Shown here one piece after another: positions 13,808-28,789 of a stretch of DNA of 32,000 nt (position 1 is the stretch's first letter; every line of letters starts with the position of its first letter). The translations under genes and the position numbers were made by a program. Origin of the DNA: an uncultured Thalassotalea sp. (lineage in GTDB: Bacteria > Pseudomonadota > Gammaproteobacteria > Enterobacterales > Alteromonadaceae); the NCBI GenBank assembly GCA_947492575.1, contig CANLNK010000002.1, forward strand, positions 127,304 through 159,303, given 5' to 3'. Below the pieces are notes generated by a model that had not been told where the DNA came from, ran no database searches, and was given only the letters and a program-made list of their open reading frames with translations.

Positions 13808-13825
13808 GATTATTTAATTAATTGT

Positions 13826-14710: not shown

Positions 14711-14712
14711 AT

Positions 14713-15258: not shown

Positions 15259-15260
15259 AA

Positions 15261-16142
15261 TTAGAATATCTTCTCTTCGATTAAATTAAGTAGGTACTCG
15301 CCATAGCCACTCTTCTTTAATGGCTCAGCAATTTCGATTAGCTCTTGTGTTGTTATCCAACCATTTCGGTAAGCAATTTCTTCTGGACAATTAATCTTTA
15401 AGCCCTGTCTTTTTTCAACCGTTGCTATGAACTGGGCAGCAGCGAGTAAATCGTCATGGGTTCCCGTATCAAGCCAGGCAGTTCCTCGTCCCATAATTTC
15501 CACTTTTAACTCGCCAGCACGTAAATACTGTTCTATCACATCAGTAATTTCTAGTTCGCCACGCGGTGAAGGAGTTACATTTTTCGCATATTCTACAACA
15601 TTACTATCAAAGAAATATAAACCTGGCACTGCATATTTTGACTTCGGCTGTAATGGTTTTTCTTCAATGGAGATAGCGACTCCCTGCTCGTCAAACTCGA
15701 CTACACCATAGGCTGAAGGGTTAGCAACATGGTAACCGAAAACTGTACCACCTGACTGTTGTTGATTAGCAGCAATTAATGACTTGGTTAAGTCATGTCC
15801 ATAGAATAAGTTATCACCTAAAACTAACGCGGCGGGTTGCCCAGCAAGAAACTCTTCGGCAATAATAAAAGCTTGAGCTAAACCATCTGGCGAGGGTTGC
15901 ACTGCATACTCAATAGTAACACCAAAGTTTGTGCCGTTCCCTAATAAATCTTCAAATCGACTTAACTCTTGAGGTGTTGAAATAATAAGTACTTCTTTAA
16001 TTCCGGCCTGCATTAATGTTGCGAGCGGATAATAAATCATAGGCTTATCATAAACAGGCATCAACTGCTTACTTACCACTTTAGTTAAAGGATATAGGCG
16101 TGTACCAGAACCACCAGCCAAAATAATACCTTTACGCGACAT
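15261..16142 (-). CDS. rmlA: glucose-1-phosphate thymidylyltransferase
   Basis: 293 aa. It has [17 protein letters not shown], a YGVVEFD segment and the typical RmlA C-terminus. Its start overlaps the wzt stop by 11 nt. Confidence 0.95.
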
Positions 16143-16863
16143 TTGCTTTATCCTTTTCTTTTAATGTTTTTGTTGTGTATTGATGGTATTCAGACATTAC
16201 ATTTTCCGTTCTACCTAAAGCCATAATTTTGCCATTATTAAGCCATAAACAACGGTCACATAGTCGAGCAATTTGTTTGGCACTGTGGGAAACGAAAATG
16301 ACAGTTTGGTCACCTTTCATTTTATTTAACAAAGCTCTCTCAGCCTTTTCCTTAAAGGTTCGATCACCAACGCTTAACACTTCATCGATCAGCAAGATAT
16401 CAACATCTAATACCAAACCAGTTGTAAACCCTAGCTTGGCACGCATACCAGAAGAATATGTCTTTACTGGCTGCTCAAAAAAGTCACCAAGTTCTGAAAA
16501 AGCTTTTATTTCTTCCAATTTTTCGGTGGCATCAGCCTTTGAGTAACCATTTAGCATACAACTAATAAGCGCATTATCTCGACCCGTTAATTGGTTATTA
16601 AACCCTAAGCCAAGAGCCAAAAGTGAACGAGTAACATCTCCGAGCCACTCAATGGAACCGGAATCCGGAATTAACACTCCTGCAAGTACTTTTAATAGGG
16701 TTGACTTTCCTGAGCCATTATTCCCAAGTACTCCAAAAATCTCGCCTTTACTAATGGTAAACGAGACATTATCTAAAGCATTAAACTTGAACCGTTTAAA
16801 AAGCCCAGTTCTTACTGAGTATGACAAGCCAACATCTTGCAAACTGACTACAGTGTGACTCAT
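16132..16863 (-). CDS. wzt: polysaccharide/O-antigen ABC exporter ATP-binding protein (nucleotide-binding domain only, no C-terminal carbohydrate-binding extension)
   Basis: 243 aa. It has Walker [10 protein letters not shown], the signature [11 protein letters not shown], and Walker [13 protein letters not shown]. Its ATG overlaps the wzm stop (TAATG). Confidence 0.9.
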
Positions 16864-17654
16864 TAGAGTAATTTCCTTGTTAAGTAATTACTATTCTTAG
16901 TTAACAAAAAAGTACCAAGTATAATAGCCAGAAGCGCCCAACAAGTTATTGATAGCATATATTTAAACTCAAGAACGCCCTGCCACATAAGTACTTCTCG
17001 ATATCCCTGAATTAGCGCAGCTAAGGGGTTTAGTAAGAGCAACATATCTTTTAAGTTAGGGTCTTGTATTAAGTTAACATCCCAAAAAATACCGGAAGTA
17101 AACATAAGGCCCAACATAAAAAGCTGTATTACCATACGAAAGTCTTGCGCTATTGTGACGAAAACAGAAAAGAACGCCGCCACCCCAATAGTCAATAAAT
17201 ATTGTAAAAGGATAATAGGTATGAGATTAAGCCAATGAAATGAGGCGGAAAAGCCATTTACTATTAATACGACAAACAATACGACAAAAGCTATTTGTTG
17301 CTTATAAAAGGCCTCTTGACAATTAACAAGAGGAAACATCGCCTTGGGCATATCCCGCTGCATTAGCAATCCCTTATTTTCGATGAGGCTATTTGCCCCC
17401 GAAGTAACAGCTTTTGAAAACCACAAAAACGAGATTTTACCTACCATCAAAAATGTTAGAAAGTTTTCTCCCCCTCTATACAGTACATACTTGAATACAA
17501 AATAAAAAAGTAACACGTATAACAAGGGTTCAAGCACCCACCATAGATAGCTGAGTACTAGATTATTTGCTTGCGATTTTAATTTCATTAGAGCTTGTGT
17601 ATGAACAAGCGATATAAATCTTGAGGCATTCATGAGAACCAGAGACTCCCCCAC
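16863..17654 (-). CDS. wzm: ABC-2 type polysaccharide exporter permease
   Basis: 263-aa hydrophobic ORF with about 6 predicted TM segments, immediately upstream of and coupled to wzt. The track start is GTG. An in-frame ATG at 17633 (MNASRF...) is an alternative start. Confidence 0.8.
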   Translation of the reverse strand: MGESLVLMNASRFISLVHTQALMKLKSQANNLVLSYLWWVLEPLLYVLLFYFVFKYVLYRGGENFLTFLMVGKISFLWFSKAVTSGANSLIENKGLLMQRDMPKAMFPLVNCQEAFYKQQIAFVVLFVVLIVNGFSASFHWLNLIPIILLQYLLTIGVAAFFSVFVTIAQDFRMVIQLFMLGLMFTSGIFWDVNLIQDPNLKDMLLLLNPLAALIQGYREVLMWQGVLEFKYMLSITCWALLAIILGTFLLTKNSNYLTRKLL

Positions 17655-17770
17655 TCTGGATTAATGTAATATAACGACCATCCTAAGCCGCAGATAAAAT
17701 ACACTAATTAATATCTAGATTAAATACTTTAAAATGTTTTTAAAAGTATCCGCCCACTTTTCATACTAAA

Positions 17771-19195
17771 TTAACATTTTATTGACAATGAAATTACTTT
17801 TAACTTAAAAGCAAAGACCATAATTAATAAAAGAATCGGAAGATAAAATGCACTTGATAACCAAATGGAACTATTTCCAATCTGTATATAAGTCAAACAA
17901 AACACTGTAATAAGCGAAGACAAAATACAAATTGTAAAAGGTAATAACAGTTGCCTTAAGAGATTAAAAGCATTTACATTTGCATGACGTGAAAGCAAGA
18001 ATTTCAGATGGAACAGAAATAGAACGACCTGAACGCATATGAGCGCTATTGCCACCTGTTCGATGCCAAACTGAGCCCCAATATAAATACTGATAGGAAA
18101 CACTATCAATAACCCAAGGTTCCATTTAAATAACTGCTTAACTTTGCCAATTGCCATAAACAATGACCCCAGCGGATTCATACAAGATCTAACTAAACAC
18201 CAAATTGCGAATAATGTAAGTAATTGAGATAGATGTAACCATTTATCACCAAATAAGAAACTTACAACTTCTTCACTGAAAAACGCTAAGAAGCAATAAA
18301 TTGGGAAGTTAATAAGTGCTAATGTTGAAAGTAACTTGGTATAAATTATTGGTAAATCAGGTGACTTCTGCAATTTGGACATTACAGGAAACGCGACTCT
18401 CGTTAATATTGGGTTAATAACTAACGCTGGTTTCATACAAAACTGACGAACTAAGTTATACCCACCTAAAATTTCAGTTCCTAATAACTTACCTACTAAA
18501 ACCACATCAATATGTGAGTTAATGTAGTTTACGACGCCATCACCTGTTTGATAGGCACCAAAGCTTAAATAGCCAGAAAGACTTTTGTAAGAAGAAGGCA
18601 ATGTAGGCCTAATCTTAGCCGGCGATAGAATAATAAATAGCAGCGCTTGAACAGTTAAATTAGCTAAATAGCCATATACAAGCGAAAATACCCCATACTC
18701 GGCATTCAAACAGTACACAGCGGCAAGTAAGCCCGCTAATTGGCCAACAATCTCTACTTTACTGATAATGTTAAACATCAGTTGTTTTTGCAAAACTACC
18801 AAGTGCATTCTAAAGCAGGCACTTAACAAAAAAGCTGGAGACAAACTGGTGATTAACTGTTGCAAATGTTTAGCTTCGAAAAATAAAGCTGCCAACGGCG
18901 AAATAGCTATCATCAATGTTGCCACAAGCAAGGCTACGAACAAATTAATGACATATAGCTGGTTTACGTCATTTGGTTTTACTTCCTCTTTATGAATTAC
19001 TGCATTACCTATACCCAAGTCCATAAATACTTGAGCGAAGCCTACAAACAACATTAGCAAGGCATAACTACCTAATTCATCGCCAGTTAAGAAACGAGCA
19101 GCAATCGCCAATAAAGCTAATTGCGCGAAAGCTCTAATCAAGGTTGATGAGGTAGTCCATTTGATACCAGACTTTGCTTTTTCGAAAATCGACAT
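17771..19195 (-). CDS. wzx: Wzx-type (MOP superfamily) lipid-linked oligosaccharide flippase
   Basis: 474-aa polytopic protein with about 12-14 hydrophobic segments. Its N-terminus (KWTTSSTLIRAFAQLALLAIAARFL) is typical of the polysaccharide-biosynthesis-protein family. Its ATG directly abuts the stop of the GT56 gene. Confidence 0.8.
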   Translation of the reverse strand: MSIFEKAKSGIKWTTSSTLIRAFAQLALLAIAARFLTGDELGSYALLMLFVGFAQVFMDLGIGNAVIHKEEVKPNDVNQLYVINLFVALLVATLMIAISPLAALFFEAKHLQQLITSLSPAFLLSACFRMHLVVLQKQLMFNIISKVEIVGQLAGLLAAVYCLNAEYGVFSLVYGYLANLTVQALLFIILSPAKIRPTLPSSYKSLSGYLSFGAYQTGDGVVNYINSHIDVVLVGKLLGTEILGGYNLVRQFCMKPALVINPILTRVAFPVMSKLQKSPDLPIIYTKLLSTLALINFPIYCFLAFFSEEVVSFLFGDKWLHLSQLLTLFAIWCLVRSCMNPLGSLFMAIGKVKQLFKWNLGLLIVFPISIYIGAQFGIEQVAIALICVQVVLFLFHLKFLLSRHANVNAFNLLRQLLLPFTICILSSLITVFCLTYIQIGNSSIWLSSAFYLPILLLIMVFAFKLKVISLSIKC

Positions 19196-20245
19196 CTAAT
19201 GTCCTAGCAACTGCAGCCATTTAGGCGCTAGTGCGGCTTCTGTTAATGTATTATTTAGAATATCTGAATTCCTGCATTCGTTATCTAACGATGCTCTTAA
19301 TGATTCATAGCTAAACGAATGTAGAGATTCTGAACAAGTGAGTTTAAACCCCATGTCCGTAAGATAGCTAAAGCTAGATACTTTAGACTTCATAAAAACA
19401 GGTTTATTAAGGGCAAACATTGCATAAACCACAAACAACCCTTGCTGCCTATCGTGGCCAAATACACAAATATCAACATCTGAAAGTAACTTGGCATGCT
19501 GTTGTTTAGTCAACATGTCTTGATAAGCAGTGAATTTATCGCCAAAAATATCGTTACCTGCTCTAACAACTTGCTTTATGTAATCTACCTTACCTGCGTA
19601 ATTAAGTGTGCAAACCACTTTAATGTTTTCATCTGCTAAGTGCTTTAGTTGTTCAAACATTTCAAGATGGTTATTGGACTGAGCTGCCGAGTTTCCTACC
19701 AAAAAGGTAAGGGGCTTAGCAACGTTGGTTGATTTGCGTTCGTCAGTATTTTTTAAATTATCTAGATAAGCTTGTTCGAGAGGGTAAGGAATAACCAAAG
19801 CATCTCGGCGCTTTAAGTATTTTTCCACAAGCGCTGCATCACCTTTATTTAAACAAACAACGGACTCATAACGCTTACACAAAAAACGATGAATACATTT
19901 AATAATTCGTTGTTTAAATGTAAGCTTTGGAAGCTGGTAGCGATAAATATCTGCTCCCCAGAAAACACAACTTGCCCTAGAGGTTAGAGGATGGAACAAA
20001 AGCATTAGCCAAACTTTAGGGTCGAAGTTGCCGTGAATAATTAACTTGGTACTTCTTGGTAATTTATCAAGTTGTCGTTTTAAACCCTTGGCATCTTGAT
20101 AGTAATTAAAGCCGTCAATTTCTCGTTGCTCTGGTAAAGCAAGCGCCCAAAATTGCTGTTCCTCTGATACGTCCTTTAAACTACGAAAATAACTCGCCAT
20201 CGAGACGTAGTGATGAGGAGTATCTGCAAATATATGAACTATCAC
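19196..20245 (-). CDS. GT56-family glycosyltransferase (WecF/TDP-Fuc4NAc:lipid II transferase-like)
   Basis: 349 aa. IVHIFADTPHHY, LIIHGNFDPKVWLMLL, VFWGADIY, FLVGNSAAQSNNHLE and VFGHDRQQGLF are collinear with the conserved blocks of E. coli WecF as I remember that sequence. The GTG start overlaps the upstream stop (GTGA). Confidence 0.8.
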   Translation of the reverse strand: MIVHIFADTPHHYVSMASYFRSLKDVSEEQQFWALALPEQREIDGFNYYQDAKGLKRQLDKLPRSTKLIIHGNFDPKVWLMLLFHPLTSRASCVFWGADIYRYQLPKLTFKQRIIKCIHRFLCKRYESVVCLNKGDAALVEKYLKRRDALVIPYPLEQAYLDNLKNTDERKSTNVAKPLTFLVGNSAAQSNNHLEMFEQLKHLADENIKVVCTLNYAGKVDYIKQVVRAGNDIFGDKFTAYQDMLTKQQHAKLLSDVDICVFGHDRQQGLFVVYAMFALNKPVFMKSKVSSFSYLTDMGFKLTCSESLHSFSYESLRASLDNECRNSDILNNTLTEAALAPKWLQLLGH

Positions 20246-20970
20246 TGTGGTTCCTTCGATAGCTCTACTTTTACATACACTTTTTCACCTTGCTCATTAA
20301 CATAATAAGCATTGGCATAGTCACCGTGAGTTAGTGCTCTTAACAAGTCTAGGTGCTGCTGTAACGTGCCAGTACTTGTTAAATCTAATTGGCACAGCTC
20401 TTTAAAATCTGAAATTCCGTTGTAATTTCCGGTTTCTGATGGCCTACTCGCTGAATAGTCACAGGTAATCCAAGACAATAAGTGCTCTTCAATAAGCGCT
20501 ATCTCTTCCTGCTGAATTTTGTCATAAGCGCTTTGAGACGTATCTTCACTTGAAAGCGCTATCTCCCTCTGGGTAATAATGTCACCGTGGTCAATCTCTT
20601 TATCCATCAAGTGAACAGTAACCCCTGCAGGCTTACCATTAATAATAGAGAACACTTGTGGGAACCATCCTCTATTAAACGGATTTAAACCAGGGTGAAT
20701 ATTAATACACCTGACATTTGATACTAAATAGTCAGGGAATATCTGCTTACAATGTGCAGAAATAACGAGATCGTAGGATGCAGCAATTTCCTCAGCTGAC
20801 GACTTGACGTCAATTTTTGACATCCCCATTGCTTCTAATGCGGTAGGCACTTTATTTATCGAGCTATATTTATAATCGAAAGTATACTCTTGGTAACATG
20901 ATGCTTTAGTAATCCTAATAAACTCACTCACCAAAAGCACATTGTCAGATACGACAAGTATATTCATCAA
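20242..20970 (-). CDS. sugar N-formyltransferase (dTDP-4-amino-4,6-dideoxyhexose formyltransferase-like, VioF/WbtJ type)
   Basis: 242 aa. It has the formyltransferase core INIHPGLNPFNRG followed by VHLMDKEIDHGDII (Asn/His/Asp catalytic pattern). Size and context (after a DegT aminotransferase, with rmlA/rmlB nearby) fit this enzyme type. The probable true start is the ATG at 20967, one codon inside the track start. Confidence 0.8.
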   Translation of the reverse strand: MMNILVVSDNVLLVSEFIRITKASCYQEYTFDYKYSSINKVPTALEAMGMSKIDVKSSAEEIAASYDLVISAHCKQIFPDYLVSNVRCINIHPGLNPFNRGWFPQVFSIINGKPAGVTVHLMDKEIDHGDIITQREIALSSEDTSQSAYDKIQQEEIALIEEHLLSWITCDYSASRPSETGNYNGISDFKELCQLDLTSTGTLQQHLDLLRALTHGDYANAYYVNEQGEKVYVKVELSKEPQ

Positions 20971-22058
20971 AGTTCTCTATATTGTTTAAGGAAATCTATT
21001 ACCGTATCGCAAATATAATCTACTTGTTCGAAACTCAATTCATAGTACATAGGCAGGCATAGCACTCGGCTACAAATATCATTAGCTATTGGCGTCTCAC
21101 CTGCTCCCTTATAACACTCAACTAAACTTAAGCTGGGGTAGAAATATCGCCGAGTTTGTATTTCTAAACTGGCAAAATGGGCTTGAAGCGTTTCTAGCTC
21201 AGCTTCATTATTTAAAATTATCGGGGCATAAGCGCCATTAGGTTTACATGTTTCAGTAAAAAATGGGAAGCTGACATGGCCTTTGAGATTATTAATGTAT
21301 TGGGCTGCAAGTTGTGCACGATGAGAGGTGATACTCTCAACATGTTCAAATAAAGATAAGCCCATAGCAGCATGTATTTCACTCATCTTCGCATTTATAC
21401 CAACGAGGTTTGGCATATTATTAGCGTCGAAACCAAAATTAATTAATTGCTTCGCTTTTTCATAATCGGCCTTATTCTTGAACGCTACCGCTCCGCCTTC
21501 TACGGTGTGAAAAATTTTAGTTGCATGAAGGCTTATTGTCGCGGCATCGCCATATGCTAGTAGAGGCTTTCCGTCATATTCAGCACCAAAAGTGTGTGCA
21601 GCATCGTAAATAACTTTTAGCTGGTGTTCTTGTGCCAACGCTTCCAAGGTTTTTACGTCACAAGCATTGCCATATACATGCACTGGTAGAATTGCAGAAG
21701 CACTTTTTAGGGCGTCTGTTGAAATAGCTTTTGGATCGAGGTTCAAAGTCTCCCTATCTATATCTGAAAAGATAGGGTCTATACTTAAAGCAGATAATGT
21801 ACTACTCGTCGCAGCGAACGAAAAAGGTGTAGTGATAACTTTACCTTTTACTTCCAATGCCATTAATGCAACTTGGATAGCTAATGTACCGTTAGAAACC
21901 AATAATAAATATGGTACCTTAAAGTAGTCAGCTAGCTTTTGTTCAAGTTCCTGTAAAACGGGCCCATTGTTGGTTAGATAGTTTCGTTCAAATATATCTT
22001 CGATTCTGGCGCTGTAAGCTTCAAACTTTGGTAAGAATGGTTTGACAATCGGGATCAT
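20967..22058 (-). CDS. DegT/DnrJ/EryC1-family PLP-dependent sugar aminotransferase (dTDP-4-keto-6-deoxyglucose 4-aminotransferase-like)
   Basis: 363 aa. SLHATKIFHTVEGGAV contains the Schiff-base lysine context of this family. The N-terminus (NYLTNNGPVLQELEQKLADYF) is also typical. Its ATG overlaps the upstream stop (ATGA). Whether the product has gluco (VioA) or galacto (WecE) configuration cannot be told. Confidence 0.9.
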   Translation of the reverse strand: MIPIVKPFLPKFEAYSARIEDIFERNYLTNNGPVLQELEQKLADYFKVPYLLLVSNGTLAIQVALMALEVKGKVITTPFSFAATSSTLSALSIDPIFSDIDRETLNLDPKAISTDALKSASAILPVHVYGNACDVKTLEALAQEHQLKVIYDAAHTFGAEYDGKPLLAYGDAATISLHATKIFHTVEGGAVAFKNKADYEKAKQLINFGFDANNMPNLVGINAKMSEIHAAMGLSLFEHVESITSHRAQLAAQYINNLKGHVSFPFFTETCKPNGAYAPIILNNEAELETLQAHFASLEIQTRRYFYPSLSLVECYKGAGETPIANDICSRVLCLPMYYELSFEQVDYICDTVIDFLKQYREL

Positions 22059-23830
22059 TGGTTAGCATTGACCTTTTTACTTTCTGAACTTTGAACTACA
22101 CGGTTTACCTTCTGTAGAAGCTCTATAGCCATAGCATGGCTTGGATTAACAACGAGCGCGGATTCTAACAAATATTTTGCTGCATTAAAATTCTTTAGAA
22201 CGGCCTCGCAGATAGCAAGATTAACCAATATATATATCTGCTTATTATCCAATTGATATGCTTTCCTTAACCAAAATCTTGCTTTTTTATGCATTTTTAA
22301 ATCCATTAGCATCTTACCCTTTTGCGCATAAAGCATAGCTTTTTGATTTGGACGTTTTACTTGCTTTTGCAACTTATCTAATAAATTGAAAGCCTGTTGC
22401 TGCATCCCCAGCGAAAACAAGCATTTCGCATAATTTTGAAAAAGCTCTGGTTGCTTTCCTAAATTAGATGCATGAGCCATGTCATAAAGCCTTATCGCGT
22501 GATCAAAATAGCTTAACGCTAGGTGACACTGGTCATTATCTATATACATTTGCCCTAAGCTCATATACAGGCGAGGGTTGCGCTTCGATATCGAAATTTC
22601 ATTTTTATAAAAAGCAAATTTATCAGCCCAAACCTTTGCTCTCTCATGAGTAATAATGGATAACGCAGAAACTATTATTACAGACAGTAAAACAAGATAT
22701 GTTCTTAGCCTATTTACCTTTAGCAGAATGGTAAACAAAGATGCGATTAAAACACTGTGCATAATGTTAGGCAGGTAAGTTCTATGCTCGAAAGCGACAT
22801 CTCGAATAGGAATAAACGAACTTTCTACCGCGTGTAAAACATAAAAAGAAAAAAGTGCTAACGAAGCTAAAGGCGCTTTTTTGATAAAAGCTAACCCTAA
22901 TAAAATGAGCCCAATATGGAGTGTTAAATAAGTTAGTTCTGTTACTGAAAATGCTTTAGCAATCGTAACATCGTACTCAAGCCTAAAATCTAGTGGGATA
23001 TAAAATTGCTTTATGTAATGGGCTAGCACTGCCAATTGAGTGTAGAAATACTCTAACCTAGTTAATTCACTATTCTCTCGGGTAAAACTATCAACTAACG
23101 TAACCAGCTTATCGAAATTGCCGACATAGAAGTATGCGCTAAGCCCTGCTATTAACACAGCTGCTGCAAACAAAAAACCTAATTTATTTGGGCTTTTTTT
23201 AATAATTAAAAATTCAATCAGAAGAAAAACTAAAGGCAAGACAACAACATTCTGCTTGCTTAACATGGCTGCAATGAAGCTAAGGAAGCTCAACGTTAAC
23301 CATATGAATTGATGCTTACAATTAGCAGAGAGCCTTCCCTTCAAAAATGCGTACAAACTGAGCAGGCTAAAAAATGCGGCGATAAGTGCTATTTGCTGAA
23401 CAATATAAATGACAGCTTGAGAGTTTTGAGGGTGAAAAGCAAAAATAAGGGTGGCAATCCCCGCGGCTATTTTATTTATATTGCCATTGAGAGATAAGCT
23501 GTTACGGCTCTCAAAAGAAACACTCTGCTCTAACAAGCAAAGCAATATACCAAACACAAGAACACTACTAGCTATATGAATTAATAAACTAACAAGATGG
23601 TAACCTAGAGTCGAATCCTGAAAAAAGGAGTACTGTGCTGCAAACAAGCTGTACGGTAGGGTACGTAATCCATAAACGTTAATGATTTTTTGCCAATCTA
23701 CAGGCGCTTTAATCAAGCCATTGTGAACAATAGAACTAAAGTCGTCTAAGTAGAAGTCAGCGTTCAGACTAGGGAAGTAGATTAAAAAAAGTGTGATTGC
23801 AAAAAAAAGGAAGCAATAAAAACGTTTCAA
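22055..23830 (-). CDS. polytopic GT-C-like membrane glycosyltransferase with C-terminal TPR domain (TMTC/PMT-like architecture)
   Basis: 591 aa. Residues 1-~400 hold about 10-12 hydrophobic segments, with FYLDDFSSIVHN in the first predicted external loop (an acidic DD pair, as in GT-C enzymes). Residues ~410-580 form several TPR-like repeats (LGQMYIDNDQCHLALSYFDHAIRL, AKYLLESALVVNPSHAMAIELL). The TTG start has a GGAG 7 nt upstream. Confidence 0.6.
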   Translation of the reverse strand: MKRFYCFLFFAITLFLIYFPSLNADFYLDDFSSIVHNGLIKAPVDWQKIINVYGLRTLPYSLFAAQYSFFQDSTLGYHLVSLLIHIASSVLVFGILLCLLEQSVSFESRNSLSLNGNINKIAAGIATLIFAFHPQNSQAVIYIVQQIALIAAFFSLLSLYAFLKGRLSANCKHQFIWLTLSFLSFIAAMLSKQNVVVLPLVFLLIEFLIIKKSPNKLGFLFAAAVLIAGLSAYFYVGNFDKLVTLVDSFTRENSELTRLEYFYTQLAVLAHYIKQFYIPLDFRLEYDVTIAKAFSVTELTYLTLHIGLILLGLAFIKKAPLASLALFSFYVLHAVESSFIPIRDVAFEHRTYLPNIMHSVLIASLFTILLKVNRLRTYLVLLSVIIVSALSIITHERAKVWADKFAFYKNEISISKRNPRLYMSLGQMYIDNDQCHLALSYFDHAIRLYDMAHASNLGKQPELFQNYAKCLFSLGMQQQAFNLLDKLQKQVKRPNQKAMLYAQKGKMLMDLKMHKKARFWLRKAYQLDNKQIYILVNLAICEAVLKNFNAAKYLLESALVVNPSHAMAIELLQKVNRVVQSSESKKVNANQ

Positions 23831-23862
23831 CGATCAACTCCATTGATTGTAGTCAGTATTAG

Positions 23863-23899
23863 AAAAACAAAAAAGCGAGCCTAAGCTCGCTTTTTTTCT
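23863..23899 (-). terminator. rho-independent terminator downstream of the surface-protein gene
   Basis: Minus-strand sequence AAAAAAAGCGAGC-TTAG-GCTCGC-TTTTTTGTTTTT. A GC-rich 6-bp stem is extended by A/T pairs, closes a 4-nt loop, and is followed by a T run. It lies 16 nt after the TAA stop at 23915. Confidence 0.75.
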
Positions 23900-23914: not shown

Positions 23915-25210
23915 TTACTTAGTAAGTACGCGATCACCGTCTGACTTAGTGAAGTATAGTGCTTTGATTTCAGTCGCTGTAGACGGAGTGTTAACAACTA
24001 CGTCAAATGCAACAACACCTGAAGTGATGCCAGCGTCAGCGATAGCTTGCTTAACAGCAGCAGAGATGTCTGTAACACCTTCAGCCATAACAGTAGCAAC
24101 ACCTTCGAAAGTAACCGCATCTTCACCAACGTAAACAGTTACGTCAACACCACCAGTTTGAGTAGAAGTGTTAGAAACAGTAACAGCTTGTGCGTAGTTA
24201 GAACCTACGTACATTAATGGGATGTGTGCTTTTGCACCGTTAAGCGTCCAAGAACCTGCAGCAGCCTTGTCTAAAGTAGCAGTAGAAAGCTCTTTAGTAG
24301 CGTCAGCTGGGTTTTCGTAAACTACGTCAGTAGAAACCATGAATGCTTGATCAGGGATTACTGTATCTTCTGGACCTTCAACTACTACGCTTACAGAGTA
24401 AGTACCAGCAGTTGCAGCAGCAAGATCTACGTCTAAAGAAGCAGACATGAAGTCTTCAGCAACTTCAGCAGCAGTACCGTCGATAGTAACAGTACCATCG
24501 TCGTCACCGCCTAACTCACCGTCACCGTCAGCGTCTAAGAATGAGAAGTCACCGTATACTGTGAATGCTTGCTCAACAGTAGTAACACCCATGTCAGTAG
24601 CTGCTAAAGTAGTTTCAACAGTCATAGTATCTTGAGTACCACCACCAACGAATGCTTGACGTTGTTCGTTTACGTCAACAACACCATCGAACTTAGCTGA
24701 AACTTTAGAAGAAAGCTCTGCTGCGAAAGTGTAAGCAGTGCCAGCAGCTGACTTATCAACGTCGATTGGACCGTCAACAGTGTCAACACGACCAGCAGCA
24801 GTTACTTTAACAGTACCTTTGTCAGCAGCACCAGAGATGTCTAACATTACGTCTGCTAATGTGAAAGTAGCGTCTGCGTCACCTTCTGCGAAATCTTCAG
24901 TTACTAAGTAACGCACAGCGTTATCTTTGTAGCCAAGGAATTCTAAAGAAGTGTTAGGATCAGCAATTGTAATTGCATCGCCATCTTCGTCTTCAGTTAC
25001 AACATCTGCACCTGAGAAAGTTACAGTGATGATGTCACCAGCTGAGTAATCACGACCTAAAACAACTGTTACGTCTTGCGCTTCAATCGTTTTGATACCT
25101 TGCGCGTACTCAACACCAATTACAGTGTCAGTAACACCTACAGTTGATGCAGCAGCGCCAAATGATGCAGTTGTGGCCACAGCAGCTGCAATAAGCGTCT
25201 TTTTAAACAT
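23915..25210 (-). CDS. secreted, highly acidic, Cys-free Thr/Val/Ala/Asp/Gly-rich protein; candidate S-layer or abundant surface protein
   Basis: 431 aa. It has a Sec-type signal peptide MFKKTLIAAAVATTASFGAAAS with an A-x-A cleavage context. There is no cysteine, and D+E greatly outnumber K+R (I count 16 K and 5 R). The RBS is strong (GGAG 7 nt before the ATG). Codon choice differs markedly from the neighbours (GGT, GCT/GCA, GTT/GTA, GAC, TTC, ATC, CGT) and the local GC is visibly higher. The gene has its own terminator and a 386-bp upstream leader. Confidence 0.55.
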   Translation of the reverse strand: MFKKTLIAAAVATTASFGAAASTVGVTDTVIGVEYAQGIKTIEAQDVTVVLGRDYSAGDIITVTFSGADVVTEDEDGDAITIADPNTSLEFLGYKDNAVRYLVTEDFAEGDADATFTLADVMLDISGAADKGTVKVTAAGRVDTVDGPIDVDKSAAGTAYTFAAELSSKVSAKFDGVVDVNEQRQAFVGGGTQDTMTVETTLAATDMGVTTVEQAFTVYGDFSFLDADGDGELGGDDDGTVTIDGTAAEVAEDFMSASLDVDLAAATAGTYSVSVVVEGPEDTVIPDQAFMVSTDVVYENPADATKELSTATLDKAAAGSWTLNGAKAHIPLMYVGSNYAQAVTVSNTSTQTGGVDVTVYVGEDAVTFEGVATVMAEGVTDISAAVKQAIADAGITSGVVAFDVVVNTPSTATEIKALYFTKSDGDRVLTK

Positions 25211-25596: not shown

Positions 25597-27672
25597 TTAT
25601 TCATTAATGATATTTAGACCACTAAGCGACTGCTGGAATGAGGACATGATCCCACTCCATTGCTCACTTCTAGAAATTACTTTTGGTGTCACCAACAGCA
25701 CCAACTCTGTTTTTGAGAAGGAGTCACTCTTCGACTTAAATAAATTCCCTAAAACAGGAATGTCGCCAAGTAATGGGATTTTGTTATCTACGACTGATTT
25801 ATTTTCATCTATCAATCCTCCCAATATTATTGTTTGGCCACTTTCTGCTACTACCGCCGTTGCCAAGTTACGTTCATATATGTTTGGATTTCCTGTACTG
25901 CCTGACGCCGATGACTCGACTTCATTACTGATAGATTCAGTTATATCCATGATGACAACGCCTTGAGCATTGATAGTCGGAGTGACTGAGACCTTAATGC
26001 CAGTTTGACGATAAGAAGTAGATGTGGTCTGCCTATCATTTTCACCAAACCCGTCTGTAACTGAATCTGTTACAGATATTTGCTCACCAACTTCTAAGGT
26101 CGCCGTGACTCCATCTCTAACCAAGAGGCTAGGGTTAGACAAAATTTTAACGTTTGTGTTGCCTTGTGAAAAAGCTGCACTGACGGTATCACTAAAGCCA
26201 TTGGTTAAAGAAAAGCTGAAGCCACCATCAGAGGCACTTACGTCTCCAATTGTCCCTCCACTAAAACGGCCATTTTCGAGAGCCCATTTAACACCGTACT
26301 TGAAGTCATCAGTTAGCGTAACTTCCGCGACCACTATATCAAGCATTACTTGCTTAGGAAGAACGTCTAATCGGTTAACTAAAGGGATGATATTTCTGTA
26401 CTCAGTTCCAGTTGTATAAAATATCAATGCGTTTGAGCGCTCATCTACCACAAACGTCAATTCAGTATTAGAAGCACCGGTCACTTTTTTAGCTTTCACT
26501 AAATTTGACGTGCTTTTTCCATTTGAATCACTAGTACTAACTGCAAGTTGACTGTTAGCGCTTTTAATTGCTTGAGTTCTTGCGGAAATCAGTGGAGTAA
26601 GGCTTTCGCCAATATCTGCTGCTCTTGCATATTTTGGATGATAAACGTAATACCGCTTTACATCACCTTGCGGTGGCTTATCGAGCGTTTTTGTCCAAAA
26701 CTTAACTCGATCCATAAGCTCCTTTGTAGCTGAAAAAACTGCTACTGCACCAATTTGCATTAATGGTACGAAAACCAAGTTATTATTTTGTGGATCATTT
26801 ATGCTATTCGGAATTCCTTCCGTATCTAAAAGTGCTTGTAATTGCTGAAGGTAAATATCAGGAGATGAATACACTAACTTAACTAGCCCTACATATCGCC
26901 CTCTATTTGCCGGAGAATCTAATAATTGAATTAATTCAACAGCTCTTGCTACATTAGTGTAGTTACCACGTATAAACAAAGCACTTTGTTTCACATCTAA
27001 ATTGACTTTAACGTCTGCTAATTCCTGAACAGTGTTTTTAAGTGAGGTTTTAATGCCGTATAAGATAGGCATTACATGAAGTATGCTTCTTCCTCGCTCT
27101 ACTGAACTTACTTCTCGCCCCATACTGACGATAGTTGATGATTTGCTCTTGGGATCAAGCTTGTTAAGCATGAAGGTGTTATTTTCATGTTTAAGCTGAA
27201 TGTTTCTCTGTGCAAAAATTTGTTCTGTCAGCTGGAATAGCTCTTTCTTTGAAACCGCTTTATTCAGGTTTAATGTCACAACTTCTTTGCTATTGGCTAT
27301 GTTAGGCGCAAGCACGTAGTTAGCCTGCAACAGCTCACCAAACGTATAATGAATGAAATCAGCCAAAGGCATTTTGTTTGCTTTGACAGTTGCGACTTCT
27401 TCATCAGGAAACAAGCTTGATAACTGTGTAGACTCAAACTGAACAAGCCCTCTTTTCATTGCTTGTAATCTAGTAAACGGCCTATCTTTACTTTGCTCTT
27501 CGACATCACCAGCTGCATCGCTATCTAATAAAACATCGTCCCCACTTTCCTTTAAATAAGAAGTTTCCAACGAATGAACTTGGTTCTCTGCTTTATCATC
27601 AATACTCGCGCAACCGCTCAAGACTGTTAATAAACAAACTGAAACTAAACTAACTTTAAATTTGACCATCAC
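25597..27672 (-). CDS. gspD: secretin (GspD/MshL-type outer-membrane channel) with N-terminal lipobox
   Basis: 691 aa. The canonical secretin C-domain is present (ILGGLIDENKSVVDNKIPLLGDIPVLGNLFKSKSDSFSKTELVLLVTPKVI), preceded by N-domain-like repeats. The signal peptide ends in the lipobox L-S-G-C (VCLLTVLSGCAS). The track start is GTG and the ATG one codon inside is more likely. Confidence 0.92.
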   Translation of the reverse strand: MMVKFKVSLVSVCLLTVLSGCASIDDKAENQVHSLETSYLKESGDDVLLDSDAAGDVEEQSKDRPFTRLQAMKRGLVQFESTQLSSLFPDEEVATVKANKMPLADFIHYTFGELLQANYVLAPNIANSKEVVTLNLNKAVSKKELFQLTEQIFAQRNIQLKHENNTFMLNKLDPKSKSSTIVSMGREVSSVERGRSILHVMPILYGIKTSLKNTVQELADVKVNLDVKQSALFIRGNYTNVARAVELIQLLDSPANRGRYVGLVKLVYSSPDIYLQQLQALLDTEGIPNSINDPQNNNLVFVPLMQIGAVAVFSATKELMDRVKFWTKTLDKPPQGDVKRYYVYHPKYARAADIGESLTPLISARTQAIKSANSQLAVSTSDSNGKSTSNLVKAKKVTGASNTELTFVVDERSNALIFYTTGTEYRNIIPLVNRLDVLPKQVMLDIVVAEVTLTDDFKYGVKWALENGRFSGGTIGDVSASDGGFSFSLTNGFSDTVSAAFSQGNTNVKILSNPSLLVRDGVTATLEVGEQISVTDSVTDGFGENDRQTTSTSYRQTGIKVSVTPTINAQGVVIMDITESISNEVESSASGSTGNPNIYERNLATAVVAESGQTIILGGLIDENKSVVDNKIPLLGDIPVLGNLFKSKSDSFSKTELVLLVTPKVISRSEQWSGIMSSFQQSLSGLNIINE

Positions 27673-27684
27673 AAAATTCTTATA

Positions 27685-28248
27685 TTAAGACTTACTTTTC
27701 AAAAACAACTGCAGTGAGATTATTCTATCACCATCAGCAAGTTCTATATGATTATTCTCTATTATCTGTACTGTATAATTATCAAGCTTTTCTTGAGTAA
27801 CTAATTTGATTGACTTAATAACGCCAGATACTAAGTGTCTTTCGCTGAGTAAGGCAAACTTATTGCCGTTTTCATCAAAAATAGCGGTAAGTGAATACTC
27901 CTTTTCTCCACTAAAAAAGTTCTTCTTTGCCCCTTTTTGCTTGTTTTGCTCTTCAAGCGACATAATTTGAACTTTGGGTTTTGAAGGTTTGTTCTGTTTA
28001 GCTTTTGGTTTTGGCTTCTCAAATCTTTCAAGTGCTTCGTCTACTTTTTTAAGTTCGTCTTTCATTAGAAATTTGATTTGTGGTTTATTTTGAACACCTT
28101 CAGACACTAATGCAGATAATTTTATTTCATCACTAGTTAATCGTGACGAAAAATCAATCAAAGCAAGTAAAAAGCTCGCGACTAATAATATGGAAAGAGA
28201 AGTTTTATTCACTAGTATTCTCCTCTTTATATTTTCTCCATACTGCAA
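27685..28248 (-). CDS. bitopic secretion-system component, GspC/PilP-like (TM anchor, Lys/Pro linker, small beta domain)
   Basis: It has an N-terminal TM segment (SLSILLVASFLLALI), a basic KPKPKAKQNKPSKPK linker, and a C-terminal ~70-aa beta-rich segment (YSLTAIFDENGNKFALLSE...IELADGDRIISLQL) resembling GspC-HR/PilP domains. It sits directly before the secretin. The likely true start is the GTG at 28212, which has AAGAGGAG 7 nt upstream and overlaps the upstream stop. The track's ATG at 28248 would overlap the upstream gene by 44 nt. Confidence 0.45.
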   Translation of the reverse strand: MQYGENIKRRILVNKTSLSILLVASFLLALIDFSSRLTSDEIKLSALVSEGVQNKPQIKFLMKDELKKVDEALERFEKPKPKAKQNKPSKPKVQIMSLEEQNKQKGAKKNFFSGEKEYSLTAIFDENGNKFALLSERHLVSGVIKSIKLVTQEKLDNYTVQIIENNHIELADGDRIISLQLFLKSKS

Positions 28249-28789
28249 AAGTAATTTTGCCAGACACTCTTCCTAGCCTCATACTTGAGGCCCTCATTCT
28301 CGACACATTCAAAGTGTAGTTAGCTAGTGCAACTTTAGGTTTTAAACTCTCCGCTACCAGCAACCCTTTCATTAGCTGTTTAAAACTGCCAGTTACTGTC
28401 ATCTCCATCATCTGCTCTTCGTAACCACTTTTTTGCACTGGCGTTAACCAGCTAGTTCGAGATACAGATAACCCATGCTTTACAAACAATTCCTCTATCG
28501 CCTCTTGATGCCCTAGTCTAAATTGAACTTCGTCATCTGACGTTGTAAAAAGTAGCGCATCGTACTCTATTACTTCCTGCTCTATAGTGCCTATAGTCGA
28601 TAACATTTTATCTTGGTTTAATAGCAAGCGTTCTGTTTTCAATAGACGCTCCTGCAATTTGGCTATTGAGGCCACTTTACTTTCTTGCCACTCCAAAAGA
28701 GGCGCCACAGCAAATTTAATGGCAGCCAAAAAGAGAATAACGCCGAGCATGAGAGGCTTGTTATTTAGTAGTTCTCTCATCTTAGCCAA
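28205..28789 (-). CDS. bitopic secretion-system component, GspM/PilO/MshJ-like
   Basis: About 190 aa with one N-terminal TM segment (PLMLGVILFLAAIKFAVAPLL), then a coiled segment (IAKLQERLLKTERLLLNQ) and an alpha/beta C-terminal domain. The position between the L-like and C-like genes fits this role. The track start is TTG. The ATG at 28780 (MRELL...), 1 nt after the upstream stop, is more likely. Confidence 0.5.
   Translation of the reverse strand: MAKMRELLNNKPLMLGVILFLAAIKFAVAPLLEWQESKVASIAKLQERLLKTERLLLNQDKMLSTIGTIEQEVIEYDALLFTTSDDEVQFRLGHQEAIEELFVKHGLSVSRTSWLTPVQKSGYEEQMMEMTVTGSFKQLMKGLLVAESLKPKVALANYTLNVSRMRASSMRLGRVSGKITFAVWRKYKEENTSE

Follow-up and report, generated by a model that had tools for sequence, protein, structure and literature searches.

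A TPR-bearing GT-C-like membrane protein encoded beside the S-layer gene slr4 in Thalassotalea is a probable glycosyltransferase of S-layer biogenesis

Introduction

TfpW, the arabinosyltransferase that acts on Pseudomonas aeruginosa group IV pilin, has 11 transmembrane (TM) segments, carries a DDx motif in its first loop and has its TPR domain in the periplasm, and its gene lies right after pilA (10.1101/2020.04.19.049825). In the TMTC proteins, three motifs have been described: M1, a DD pair in loop 1; M4, K-E-(T/Q)-x-x-T in loop 3; and M7, E-R-x-x-Y between TM9 and TM10. The counterpart of the M1 acidic pair in ArnT is D55/E56, and GT-C enzymes of the ArnT, PMT and TMTC types use monophosphate-linked monosaccharides as donors (PMC7801869). 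In streptococci, experiments have established GacI/GacJ as an Und-P-GlcNAc synthase supplying the GT-C enzyme GacL (10.1101/180810), and GtrB/PgtC2 carries out protein O-glycosylation from Und-P-glucose (PMC12041528).

Slr4 defines a characterised family of S-layer proteins, and the P. tunicata member, for which MS coverage reached 93%, runs near the mass predicted for it (PMC7821379). For the Aeromonas A-layer, T2SS genes and vapA are embedded in an O-antigen cluster, with the layer tethered through LPS (PMC4483657). Here, we describe a gene that lies beside slr4 in a 32-kb stretch of DNA from an uncultured Thalassotalea sp. (the window). Its product is part of a large, uncharacterised bacterial family built like TMTC and TfpW, and our literature search found no paper describing an Slr4-linked, TPR-bearing GT-C gene.

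Results

The gene encodes a 591-aa protein composed of a membrane domain and a TPR domain, with the following features.

22055..23830, minus strand: gene for the GT-C-like TPR membrane protein, 591 aa, TTG start, TGA stop
23838..23841, minus strand: ribosome-binding site GGAG, 7 nt 5' of the TTG start, read directly in the sequence
22643..23830, minus strand: membrane domain, residues 1-396, with 11 TM helices, a cytoplasmic N-terminus and five periplasmic loops
23741..23746, minus strand: codons of D29 and D30, the acidic pair in periplasmic loop 1, invariant in the alignment
23255..23257, minus strand: codon of K192 in the short third periplasmic loop, invariant, consensus T-K-Q-N-T-x-T
22775..22789, minus strand: codons of E348-H-R350-T-Y352 in the fifth periplasmic loop
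22058..22642, minus strand: C-terminal TPR domain, residues 397-591, about five repeats (Pfam and model), predicted periplasmic

The protein has 410 homologues at E <= 0.001, and homologues begin at the same K-R residues. The initial annotation read this ORF as a polytopic domain followed by TPRs, with an FYLDDF acidic pair after the first TM segment, and both observations hold: residues 1-396 are followed by about 195 aa of TPR, and D29 and D30 of the FYLDDF motif lie directly after TM1 and are unchanged in 55 of 55 homologues (26-79% identity). The AlphaFold model (pLDDT 92.7 over the full length, 93.5 for residues 1-405) places 11 hydrophobic helices within residues 1-396. This count falls within the 8-13 TM helices of the GT-C superfamily, whose members carry an acidic motif (DD, DxD or DE) in the first extracytoplasmic loop. 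The cytoplasmic loops contain 0.16-0.36 K+R per residue and the periplasmic loops 0-0.09, the exception being the five-residue third periplasmic loop (0.20), which holds the invariant K192. With 11 TM helices, an odd count, and loop charges that obey the positive-inside rule, the TPR domain is predicted to be periplasmic.

Conservation is concentrated on the same side of the membrane. Among positions conserved at 90% or more (n=48), 31 lie in periplasmic loops and two in cytoplasmic loops, and the roughly 30 residues that are invariant among sequences of 26-79% identity cluster in periplasmic loops. The fifth periplasmic loop is the most conserved stretch of the protein: E348, H349, R350 and Y352 never vary among the 55 aligned sequences, and a 21-sequence alignment shows T351 at least 90% conserved. 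Conservation of the DD pair, the lysine and E-H-R-x-Y in periplasmic loops suggests an active-site signature rather than an anchor. In the C-terminal region, TPR_2, TPR_14 and TPR_12 match residues 421-571 and are the sole Pfam matches on the protein, while the model shows ten helices forming about five TPR hairpins (residues 404-590). The best fold match of this domain is the TPR domain of OGT (1w3b); PilF, PilW and LcrH-type models match the region weakly.

We compared the membrane domain with known folds and families. With Foldseek, its top solved structure is ArnT (5f15; probability 0.99, E 0.08, TM 0.41, 390 aligned columns), a match that is modest in score, and the only other matches above 0.3 probability are Pmt4 and EmbB, both GT-C. 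Pfam searches with the membrane domains of the query and 21 relatives returned no match at E <= 1, with PMT, PMT_2 and DUF1736 all missing; DUF1736 (PF08409) was likewise absent from the Pfam lists of the 120 best matches, and Wzy_C (PF04932) was not found by Pfam in the protein or its relatives. The family profile found nothing among PDB sequences. Alignment to E. coli ArnT by hhalign gave probabilities of 1.9-6.6% with a shallow ArnT profile (sequences at least 76% identical), and it puts K192 on the T-K-G lysine of ArnT in an alignment that is not significant. The GT-C-like build put forward in the initial annotation is borne out by structure, whereas no sequence profile joins the protein to any GT-C family, and the assignment as a putative GT-C enzyme derives solely from predicted fold and motifs.

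The neighbouring genes are as follows.

25597..31954, minus strand: dedicated T2SS genes 5' of slr4, encoding secretin GspD, M-like, K and pseudopilins (Pfam/NCBIfam)
23915..25210, minus strand: slr4, a 431-aa S-layer protein with a Sec signal peptide (PF19526, E 3e-74), candidate acceptor
23869..23896, minus strand: intrinsic terminator after slr4, a 12-bp stem followed by a T run, between slr4 and the GT-C gene
20967..22058, minus strand: DegT-family sugar aminotransferase (PF01041, E 6e-84), its ATG overlapping the GT-C stop (ATGA)
20242..20970, minus strand: dTDP-4-amino-4,6-dideoxyglucose N-formyltransferase (NF005755, 275.9 bits against a cut-off of 238)
19196..20245, minus strand: GT56 (WecF-like) glycosyltransferase (PF07429, E 4e-27; NCBIfam WecF models under their cut-offs)
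17771..19195, minus strand: Wzx/MOP-family lipid-linked sugar flippase (NF007773, 332 bits against a cut-off of 273; PF13440)
12728..17654, minus strand: Wzm/Wzt ABC-2 exporter and RmlA, RmlC, RmlD and RmlB (Pfam/NCBIfam)

The adjacent gene product, at first called a surface protein, can now be named as Slr4; it is acidic (16% D+E) and rich in Thr and Ser (12.7% T, 5.8% S). As annotated, the GT-C gene is the first gene after the terminator, which is a strong one. Its translational coupling to the aminotransferase, formyltransferase, GT56 and Wzx genes is real, as the successive junctions read ATGA, TGATG (or TTGA), GTGA and TAGATG, with the flippase gene closing the operon. The best NCBIfam model for the aminotransferase is dTDP-4-dehydro-6-deoxyglucose aminotransferase, under cut-off, and the formyltransferase contains the Pfam domains Formyl_trans_N and N_formyltrans_C. 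The Wzm/Wzt and Rml genes point to dTDP-sugar supply and O-polysaccharide export, and the exported polymer may anchor the S-layer and may be the acceptor in place of Slr4. Pfam and NCBIfam scans of minus-strand window ORFs of at least 139 aa detected no Wzy_C, WaaL or PglL-type gene, in agreement with the earlier reading; one 498-aa ORF matches nothing and appears on reading to be free of hydrophobic segments. The same databases revealed no DprE-type family among the window ORFs, and the window holds no homologues of ArnC or ArnD.

The order T2SS, slr4, GT-C gene is conserved at 15 or more loci, among which Slr4 identity drops to about 26%. The GT-C gene lies 0-1 genes 3' of slr4 in the window, L001, L002, L004, L006, L007, L009, L011, L015, L017, L020, L021, L031, L047 and L072, and three genes 3' in L050 and L075, the L075 Slr4 relative being visible to hhalign only (probability 94%). 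The T2SS gene order in L001, L002 and L006 matches that of the window. Although the downstream polysaccharide genes alternate between Wzx/Wzy-type and ABC-type, the linkage of slr4 and the GT-C gene is constant. Identity of the TPR domain follows that of Slr4 with a slope of about 1.0 and a rho of 0.98 across 8 loci, uncorrected for shared phylogeny, and in close relatives the TPR domain is more alike than the catalytic domain (74% vs 53%, 67% vs 46%). This conserved synteny supports the tie to the adjacent surface protein that the initial annotation had proposed, and the GT-C gene is a conserved accessory gene of an Slr4 S-layer locus made up of T2SS, slr4, GT-C gene and sugar aminotransferase. 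Since L010 and L012 contain slr4 and lack the GT-C gene, the gene is not required for the Slr4 layer as such. Some GT-C relatives are encoded immediately after a T2SS secretin and ahead of unknown proteins, with no recognised polysaccharide genes between; one of these unknown proteins has a signal-peptide-like N-terminus.

Across the family as a whole, the neighbour that recurs is not GT56/Wzx but a GT2+DUF2304 pair of the GacI/GacJ type, an undecaprenyl-phosphate-sugar synthase. The pair is found near family members, mostly directly adjoining them, in 21 of 72 scored metagenomic loci (12 of 29 with at least 2 kb of flank per side; 9 of 20 with at least 4 kb) and beside GT-C relatives in L001, L006, L007, L009, L011, L015 and L016. 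A Wzx gene lies directly 3' of GT2-DUF2304 in L001, L009 and L015, as gacK does after gacIJ. In Arhodomonas, the GT-C relative and the pair form an overlapping three-gene operon with no Slr4 near. The occurrence of this neighbour outside Slr4 loci, often overlapping, points to a monosaccharide-phosphate-lipid donor. A phmmer search found no GacI/GacJ-type synthase in the window, which covers 22 kb downstream and 8 kb upstream, and so the donor route is not encoded beside the GT-C gene here.

The distribution of GT56 and Wzx is different. L010 carries both genes, together with Wzz, beside slr4 but without the GT-C gene; conversely, L007, L011 and L075 have the GT-C gene beside slr4 without GT56 or Wzx. 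In L016 and most metagenomic loci, too, the GT-C gene is present and GT56 and Wzx are not. This distribution, with a GacI/GacJ-type neighbour instead, does not support the original proposal that the protein transfers the Wzx-flipped glycan.

Discussion

We consider it likely that the 591-aa protein is an inner-membrane GT-C enzyme of the ArnT/TMTC/TfpW type that acts on the periplasmic side and takes part in S-layer biogenesis. Its donor, acceptor and catalysis we infer from the observations above. The complete reading, in which a lipid-phosphate-linked 4-acylamino-4,6-dideoxyhexose is the donor and Slr4 the acceptor, is more tentative, and we hold it at a little under even confidence. RmlA/RmlB, the DegT aminotransferase and the formyltransferase would produce dTDP-4-formamido-4,6-dideoxyhexose. 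The sugar would then be placed on undecaprenyl phosphate, in most relatives by a GacI/GacJ-type GT2+DUF2304 pair that is absent from the window, and flipped, possibly by the adjacent Wzx acting in the manner of GacK. The GT-C enzyme would transfer it on the periplasmic side, where its putative catalytic residues are predicted to face (D29/D30 in loop 1, K192 in loop 3, E348-H-R-T-Y352 in loop 5), and the five-repeat TPR domain may serve as the acceptor-recognition module. Slr4 is the most likely acceptor, probably at Ser/Thr during its periplasmic passage ahead of type II secretion, with the S-layer-anchoring O-polysaccharide as the alternative. Counting against Slr4 as acceptor, the GT-C gene always sits within polysaccharide gene clusters, and Und-P-sugar/GT-C systems often modify glycans. 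The near-predicted mass of P. tunicata Slr4 also argues against heavy glycosylation there, in a genome that may or may not carry the GT-C gene.

A less likely explanation is that the enzyme adds the Und-P-linked 4-acylamino-4,6-dideoxyhexose to O-polysaccharide or LPS core as a branch or cap, by analogy with GacL on streptococcal rhamnan, GtrC on O-antigens and ArnT on lipid A. The sugar would in that case create or tune an epitope that tethers the acidic Slr4 lattice. The GT2+DUF2304 pair is the one that feeds GacL, a polysaccharide-modifying GT-C, and the sequence of aminotransferase, formyltransferase, lipid carrier and GT-C parallels the logic of ArnB/A/C/T. The GT-C gene is paired with Wzm/Wzt in the window, L007 and L011, with Rml in the window and L011, suggesting that the polymer is ABC-exported and, as in the group A carbohydrate, probably contains rhamnose. 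No shift in mass is seen for P. tunicata Slr4, and in Aeromonas the T2SS and S-layer genes lie inside an O-antigen cluster, with an LPS-tethered layer (PMC4483657). Against this, the TPR-bearing GT-Cs TMTC and TfpW act on proteins, the GT-C gene stays by slr4 though the type of polysaccharide pathway changes, its TPR domain diverges in step with Slr4, and the secretin-linked relatives have no recognised polysaccharide genes in between. Nor do we know of a TPR domain in ArnT, GtrC, GacL or YfhO, the characterised GT-Cs that modify glycans or lipids.

It is improbable that the enzyme is an oligosaccharyltransferase or ligase that takes the place of a PglL/WaaL-type enzyme, which the window lacks, and moves a GT56-built, Wzx-flipped, Und-PP-linked unit en bloc to Slr4 or lipid A-core. 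GT56 and Wzx do form the only lipid-linked sugar route beside the GT-C gene in the window, L002 and L004, within one coupled operon; the window has no Wzy, WaaL or Wzy_C gene; and TfpW has been proposed to be an oligosaccharyltransferase (10.1101/2020.04.19.049825). However, GT56, Wzx and Wzz occur beside slr4 without the GT-C gene in L010, and L007, L011, L016, L075 and most metagenomic loci have the GT-C gene but neither GT56 nor Wzx. Loci with GT56/Wzx often add a Wzy-like polymerase and Wzz, as in ordinary O-unit polymerisation, WaaL may sit elsewhere in the genome, and GT-Cs of the ArnT, PMT and TMTC types take monophosphate-linked monosaccharides. Finally, a non-catalytic, membrane-anchored TPR scaffold or chaperone for Slr4 secretion or lattice assembly, with the GT-C-like domain as its anchor, is very improbable: TPR proteins often assist secretion or the assembly of pili, PilF, PilW and LcrH-type models match weakly and some relatives directly follow a T2SS secretin, but about 30 invariant residues, including DD, the lysine and E-H-R-x-Y, cluster in periplasmic loops, and the gene recurs in an operon with an Und-P-sugar synthase.

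Compared by description, TfpW and the 591-aa protein are alike in their length of about 600 aa, cytoplasmic N-terminus, 11 TM segments, loop-1 DD-type motif (essential in TfpW) and large periplasmic C-terminal TPR domain. In both, the membrane part is best matched by ArnT and the TPR part by OGT, and both genes lie directly 3' of a gene for a secreted structural protein (pilA or slr4). They differ in that the partner of TfpW is a pilin, whereas here it is a T2SS-exported S-layer protein, and in that TfpW is associated with donor genes for D-arabinofuranose (DprE-type), none of which was found in the window, whereas the likely sugar here is a 4-formamido-4,6-dideoxyhexose and the family partner is GacI/GacJ.

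TMTC1-4 (CAZy GT105, cadherin O-mannosyltransferases) likewise consist of an 11-TM GT-C domain followed by extracytoplasmic TPRs, and JGI or UniRef gives some members of the present family the label 'protein O-mannosyl-transferase' or 'Transmembrane and TPR repeat...'. In a by-eye comparison with the published motifs, the DD pair, K192-Q-N-x-x-(T/V) and E348-H-R-T-Y352 fall in matching loops and are similar, not identical, to those of TMTC. In contrast to TMTC, which have DUF1736 in the fourth lumenal loop, the 591-aa protein has about five TPRs and no DUF1736 or PMT_2 match, its carrier would be undecaprenyl phosphate and not dolichol, and its donor is probably not mannose.

The GacI/GacJ/GacK/GacL, GtrABC and pentofuranose systems each comprise an Und-P-sugar synthase, a flippase and a GT-C that transfers sugar from a lipid monophosphate in the periplasm. 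The operons of relatives resemble gacI-J-K-L in having GT2+DUF2304, often followed by a Wzx-type flippase; the window differs in missing the synthase pair. To our knowledge, neither GacL nor GtrC has a TPR domain, and both act on polysaccharide. The Arn pathway also combines a DegT-type aminotransferase, an N-formyltransferase, a formylated amino sugar and delivery by a GT-C, and ArnT is the closest solved structure to the membrane domain. It differs in using UDP-arabinose and not dTDP-hexose chemistry and in including ArnC and ArnD, which the window lacks. Unlike ArnT, the 591-aa protein has a TPR domain, and its proposed acceptor is Slr4 or O-polysaccharide, nothing pointing to lipid A.

The Aeromonas A-layer locus resembles the window in having a dedicated T2SS, then the S-layer gene, amid O-polysaccharide genes including Wzm/Wzt and Rml; the available portion of its account mentions no GT-C/TPR gene, and VapA belongs to an S-layer protein family other than Slr4 (PMC4483657). 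Across many marine bacteria the GT-C gene is a neighbour of slr4, and its product is a probable transferase of a rare amino sugar to Slr4 or to its anchoring polysaccharide.

The GT-C/TPR gene and its neighbourhood

The gene under study encodes a 591-aa membrane protein with a C-terminal TPR domain, and we refer to it as the GT-C/TPR gene; comparison loci that carry relatives of it and/or of slr4 are numbered L001 to L095. Its operon and the gene preceding it are arranged as follows, in order of transcription.

23915..25210 (-), slr4, 431-aa S-layer protein
23896..23869 (-), terminator with a 12-bp stem and T run, between slr4 and the GT-C/TPR gene
22055..23830 (-), GT-C/TPR gene, 591 aa, TTG start
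20967..22058 (-), DegT aminotransferase
20242..20970 (-), formyltransferase
19196..20245 (-), GT56 (WecF-like)
17771..19195 (-), MOP/Wzx flippase

A GGAG sequence lies 7 nt 5' of the TTG start, and the closest homologues share the M-K-R start of the protein. The codons for D29 and D30 (23746..23741, minus strand) belong to an FYLDDF motif directly after the first hydrophobic helix. The four junctions downstream read, in order, CAATGA, TTTGATG, CAGTGA and TAGATG, and these overlapping or abutting codons indicate that translation of the GT-C/TPR gene is coupled to that of the four genes after it (aminotransferase, formyltransferase, GT56 and Wzx). The reading frame, FYLDDF motif, terminator and coupling that the initial annotation had described were correct, as read from the sequence. 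Pfam detected TPRs alone in the protein (residues 421-571) and gave no match in its first 400 residues. The reported lack of a ligase gene was likewise confirmed, as Pfam and NCBIfam searches of the minus-strand window ORFs of at least 139 aa revealed no Wzy_C, WaaL or PglL-type protein. A 498-aa ORF at 6975..8471 with no match in either database was considered as a hidden Wzy or WaaL and rejected, since it reads as soluble and has no hydrophobic segments.

PF19526 identifies the 431-aa product of the gene upstream as the S-layer protein Slr4 (E 3e-74). Upstream of slr4 lies a type II secretion (T2SS) set with a secretin, an M-like protein, K and pseudopilins, and Ali et al. proposed that this arrangement is a dedicated Slr4 secretion system (PMC7821379; PMC11094555). 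Published accounts of the Slr4 locus, in the passages searched, discuss the upstream T2SS, one of them noting a nearby ABC-type capsule, and mention neither the GT-C/TPR gene nor Slr4 glycosylation. On the downstream side, the formyltransferase scores 275.9 bits with the NCBIfam model of dTDP-4-amino-4,6-dideoxyglucose formyltransferase, above its cut-off of 238 bits. After a gap past Wzx come Wzm/Wzt, RmlA, RmlC, RmlD, RmlB and several large soluble transferase/sulfotransferase proteins; together these look like an ABC-transporter-type O-polysaccharide cluster.

Within that cluster, a 1386-aa protein (8471..12631, minus strand) combines an N-terminal sulfotransferase domain with a long SMC-like coiled coil (residues ~298-576), resembling the coiled-coil chain-length "ruler"/terminator proteins of ABC-transporter O-polysaccharide pathways. 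This protein, the second sulfotransferase at 1061..1690, the GSCFA protein at 1740..2819 and the methyltransferase-like ORF at 268..933 together hint at a sulfated or methyl-capped polymer. GC content falls to 0.339 in the stretch 17001..18000 (~0.39 elsewhere), where the Wzx gene ends and a gap of 116 bp separates it from wzm; the drop marks the junction of the Slr4-linked operon and the ABC polysaccharide cluster, and may be a seam left by recombination.

Predicted fold, topology and conserved residues

We built an AlphaFold model of the GT-C/TPR protein with a 55-sequence alignment (full length: pLDDT 92.7, pTM 0.89). Since a fold search of the PDB with this model returned TPR proteins only, the best being the TPR domain of O-GlcNAc transferase, the membrane domain (residues 1-405) was modelled separately (pLDDT 93.5). 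Its best match among 350,542 chains was ArnT of Cupriavidus metallidurans (5f15; probability 0.99, E 0.08, TM 0.41, 390 columns). The only further matches above a probability of 0.3 were yeast Pmt4 (0.85) and mycobacterial EmbB (0.38), both of which are GT-C enzymes, and the rest did not exceed 0.11.

The model contains 11 hydrophobic helices. Across the 55 homologues, K+R per residue is 0.16-0.36 in the proposed cytoplasmic loops versus 0-0.09 in the periplasmic ones, with the exception of the five-residue third periplasmic loop, which is the site of the invariant K192. This charge pattern and the helix number indicate a cytoplasmic N-terminus and a periplasmic TPR domain, the orientation that the proposal of a GT-C enzyme had called for. 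Conservation reaches at least 90% at 48 positions, of which the periplasmic loops contain 31 and the cytoplasmic loops 2. They include D29, D30, R56, an H-P-x-x-x-Q-A-V loop, K192, R258/Y261/Q265/Y272 and the stretch P341-N355 with E348-H-R-T-Y352, and this distribution is the pattern of a putative periplasmic active site.

No sequence profile linked the protein to a GT-C family. Pfam found nothing in 21 membrane domains of the family except one weak DUF6056 match. A HMMER profile of alignment A2 was swamped by TPRs when run against PDB sequences, and hence the truncated alignment A3 was used; its membrane-domain profile had no match in the PDB sequences, and the membrane-domain profile search of proteins recovered the same family only, with no bridge to TMTC or PMT_2. 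Comparison of the family with E. coli ArnT by hhalign gave probabilities of 2-7%, with an ArnT profile that is shallow, its homologues all being at least 76% identical. The protein falls outside Pfam-defined TMTC (DUF1736) and PMT_2, so we term it TMTC/TfpW-like rather than file it as a TMTC. The GT-C fold suggested in the initial annotation stands on structural but not on sequence-profile grounds: membership of the GT-C superfamily is supported by the predicted topology, by the acidic pair in loop 1 and by the closest structural match.

Linkage to slr4 across loci

We observed the GT-C/TPR gene immediately downstream of slr4, or of slr4 and an aminotransferase gene, in the window and in many other loci. 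Some were reached through homologues of the protein (L001 of Thalassotalea euphylliae, 59% identity; L002; L004; L006; L007 of Shewanella halifaxensis; L015), others independently from Slr4 (L009 of Fluctibacter halophilus; L011 of Shewanella waksmanii), and others are metagenomic (L017, L020, L021, L031, L047, L072). In L050 the gene is three genes downstream of an Slr4 relative, and in L075 three genes past a 503-aa remote Slr4 relative (hhalign probability 94%, E 1.4e-7) that itself follows a secretin. The genome scan from Slr4 gave only 5 loci because its peptide patterns were narrow. Two Slr4 loci, L010 (Pseudoalteromonas sp. MSK9-3) and L012, have polysaccharide genes after slr4 and no GT-C/TPR protein within 10 kb, which makes the gene a frequent accessory of Slr4 loci and not a universal part. 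A 580-aa ORF after Wzx in L010, considered as a divergent copy, is asparagine-synthase-like instead.

Beyond the linked pair, Wzx/Wzy/Wzz-type genes are present in L001, L002, L004, L006, L009 and L015, and Wzm/Wzt-type genes in the window, L007 and L011. The linkage partner of the GT-C/TPR gene is slr4 plus the aminotransferase gene, not any one polysaccharide pathway, and the proposed tie to the adjacent surface protein holds, the gene order being kept in many Slr4 loci.

The L075 protein (4054..5565, metagenome contig Ga0056115_1000103) has no Pfam match and follows the T2SS secretin; after it come GT4, GT2, DUF2304, the GT-C/TPR gene and a TPR-sulfotransferase. This remote relative indicates that the Slr4 family and its locus type reach beyond PF19526 detection. 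Every Slr4 locus examined that has downstream sequence, including L010 and L012, carries polysaccharide genes after slr4, and in most a DegT aminotransferase is the first or second of them, which suggests that Slr4 layers generally go together with a glycan containing a 4-amino-4,6-dideoxyhexose. In Caulobacter, the S-layer binds an N-acetylperosamine O-antigen. Directly after Wzx, L001 (19633..21099) and L002 (16068..17441) encode a 457-488-aa protein without a Pfam match that is conserved between them (E ~1e-122) and whose position suggests a Wzy-type polymerase; the window has no counterpart of it.

The sugar donor

The initial annotation had proposed that the donor is the Wzx-flipped product, which as a family rule is unlikely. 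L010 has GT56 and Wzx beside slr4 without the GT-C/TPR gene, L007, L011 and L075 have the GT-C/TPR gene with slr4 and neither GT56 nor Wzx, and the recurrent partner of the family is a 230-260-aa GT2 with a small DUF2304 membrane protein. We found this pair in L001, L006, L007, L009, L011 and L015. In L016 (Arhodomonas sp. AD133), the genes for GT2, DUF2304 and the GT-C/TPR protein overlap at 6832..9740 as a three-gene operon that has no S-layer or T2SS genes close by; upstream of it are genes for an MBOAT acyltransferase and a rotamase. Among scored metagenomic loci the pair occurs in 21 of 72; the figure is 12 of 29 when both flanks extend for at least 2 kb and 9 of 20 when they extend for at least 4 kb, and the pair directly adjoins the GT-C/TPR gene in most of those having both.

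GT2 and DUF2304 correspond to the GacI/GacJ pair, shown experimentally to make GlcNAc-P-undecaprenol for the GT-C enzyme GacL (10.1101/180810). The Wzx gene lies immediately 3' of DUF2304 in L001, L009 and L015, as gacK follows gacJ in GacIJK. Given this pairing and gene order, the family looks, by analogy, to be the GT-C member of a three-component system using a lipid-monophosphate monosaccharide (see also PMC11194591). No GacI/GacJ-type gene was found within the 32-kb window or in the available flanks of L002 and L004. In these three organisms the synthase would be encoded elsewhere in the genome, or else, improbably, the GT56/Wzx product would be used.

Family size and annotation

Family matches among the scored candidates of two protein searches numbered 410 and 768. 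Clustered at 50% identity, more than 150 representatives reach 489 bits or higher, with nearly all of them matching over both the membrane and the TPR domain; we used the best 150 of these representatives, because the full-length alignment served as query and the full counts (769,189, 276,480 and 53,872) were inflated by TPR proteins. NCBI labels the members "tetratricopeptide repeat protein" and JGI labels several "protein O-mannosyl-transferase". Our literature search found no studied member, and the catalytic domain has no Pfam model. The GT-C+TPR proteins thus make up a bacterial family that is uncharacterised and has ties to an S-layer protein and to a GacI/GacJ-type donor synthase. Two to four tandem paralogues occur per contig in L058, L074, L079 and L082 (also L039, L076 and L095), recalling the animal TMTC1-4 expansion and suggesting diversified acceptor specificity.

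The acceptor

We tentatively favour Slr4 as the acceptor, with slightly less than even confidence. To our knowledge, the GT-C enzymes that carry TPRs act on proteins, as do TMTC and TfpW, which argues for Slr4, as does the fact that the GT-C/TPR gene stays beside slr4 while the glycan pathway changes. Identity of the TPR domain tracks that of Slr4 (rho 0.98, slope 1.0), although the correlation is small (n=8 loci) and not corrected for phylogeny. In close relatives the TPR domain also outdoes the catalytic domain (74% versus 53% identity in L001; 67% versus 46% in L002), and catalytic-domain identity levels off at 35-40%. Slr4 also has a Sec signal peptide and is rich in T (12.7%) and S (5.8%), so that it passes through the periplasm. 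Further support comes from L029, L049 and L053, where relatives of the GT-C/TPR gene directly follow a T2SS secretin and precede unknown proteins, one with a signal-peptide-like N-terminus, and from the precedent of bacterial Und-P-sugar/GT-C systems that O-glycosylate proteins (PMC12041528).

At L029 5283..16121, and likewise in L049 and L053, T2SS-like GspH, GspK, a PilN-domain protein and an 815-aa secretin abut the GT-C/TPR relative, which is followed by conserved unknown proteins of ~200, 170, 440-460 and 1130-1250 aa. The 460-aa protein of L029, which has the signal-peptide-like N-terminus, was considered as an Slr4 and is not a relative of it. These loci may represent another secreted surface-protein system with the same enzyme family.

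Other observations disfavour Slr4. The GT-C/TPR gene is always among polysaccharide genes, and GacL-type systems decorate ABC-exported rhamnan, seemingly the type of polymer encoded in the window, which points to the O-polysaccharide or LPS as acceptor; we consider this unlikely, though appreciably possible. In addition, P. tunicata Slr4 is reported to run at its predicted size with 93% peptide coverage (PMC7821379), in a strain that may or may not carry the GT-C/TPR gene. En-bloc transfer of the Wzx product, against which the distribution of GT56 and Wzx among Slr4 loci speaks, is improbable, and a non-catalytic role, for a protein whose conserved residues have the predicted pattern of a periplasmic active site, is very improbable.

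With Slr4 as the favoured acceptor, a fuller reading is possible, if short of probable: this widespread family of bacterial proteins, which share the build of the animal TMTC O-mannosyltransferases and whose catalytic domain lacks a Pfam model, would serve type II-secreted S-layer proteins as their dedicated O-glycosyltransferase. The TPR domain, co-evolving with Slr4, would select it in the periplasm, and the sugar attached would be a rare 4-formamido-4,6-dideoxyhexose from an undecaprenyl-phosphate donor. If true, Gram-negative bacteria would have a new S-layer glycosylation route, and folded-substrate recognition by TMTC-type enzymes could be studied in a tractable bacterial model. Marine Gammaproteobacteria and their biofilms abound in Slr4 layers. 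Should the enzyme glycosylate Slr4 or build the glycan epitope that anchors it, it would control the outermost surface of the cell, which matters for phage resistance, predator resistance and the properties of the biofilm matrix. The family could also provide a genetically tractable bacterial model for TMTC-type GT-C enzymes and for substrate recognition through their TPRs. The recurrent GacI/GacJ pairing is also a practical guide to further lipid-phosphate-sugar glycosylation systems.

Comparison with known systems

By architecture and gene position, the closest characterised relative of the GT-C/TPR protein is TfpW, which has 11 TM helices, a DDx motif in loop 1, a periplasmic TPR domain and ArnT as best template, and whose gene comes immediately after the one for the pilin that it modifies (10.1101/2020.04.19.049825). 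In motif pattern the TMTC family is closest. Human TMTC1-4 have an 11-TM domain followed by lumenal TPRs, with DD in loop 1, K-E-(T/Q)-x-x-T in loop 3 and E-R-x-x-Y between TM9 and TM10 (PMC7801869), and the conserved loop residues of the GT-C/TPR protein, compared by eye, resemble these motifs without matching them exactly. GacIJKL/GtrABC is closest in operon logic and the Arn pathway in sugar chemistry. The overall layout of the window is similar to that of the A-layer locus of Aeromonas salmonicida, where the O-antigen cluster has the T2SS and vapA inserted between its wzm and wzt genes, and LPS tethers the A-layer (PMC4483657).
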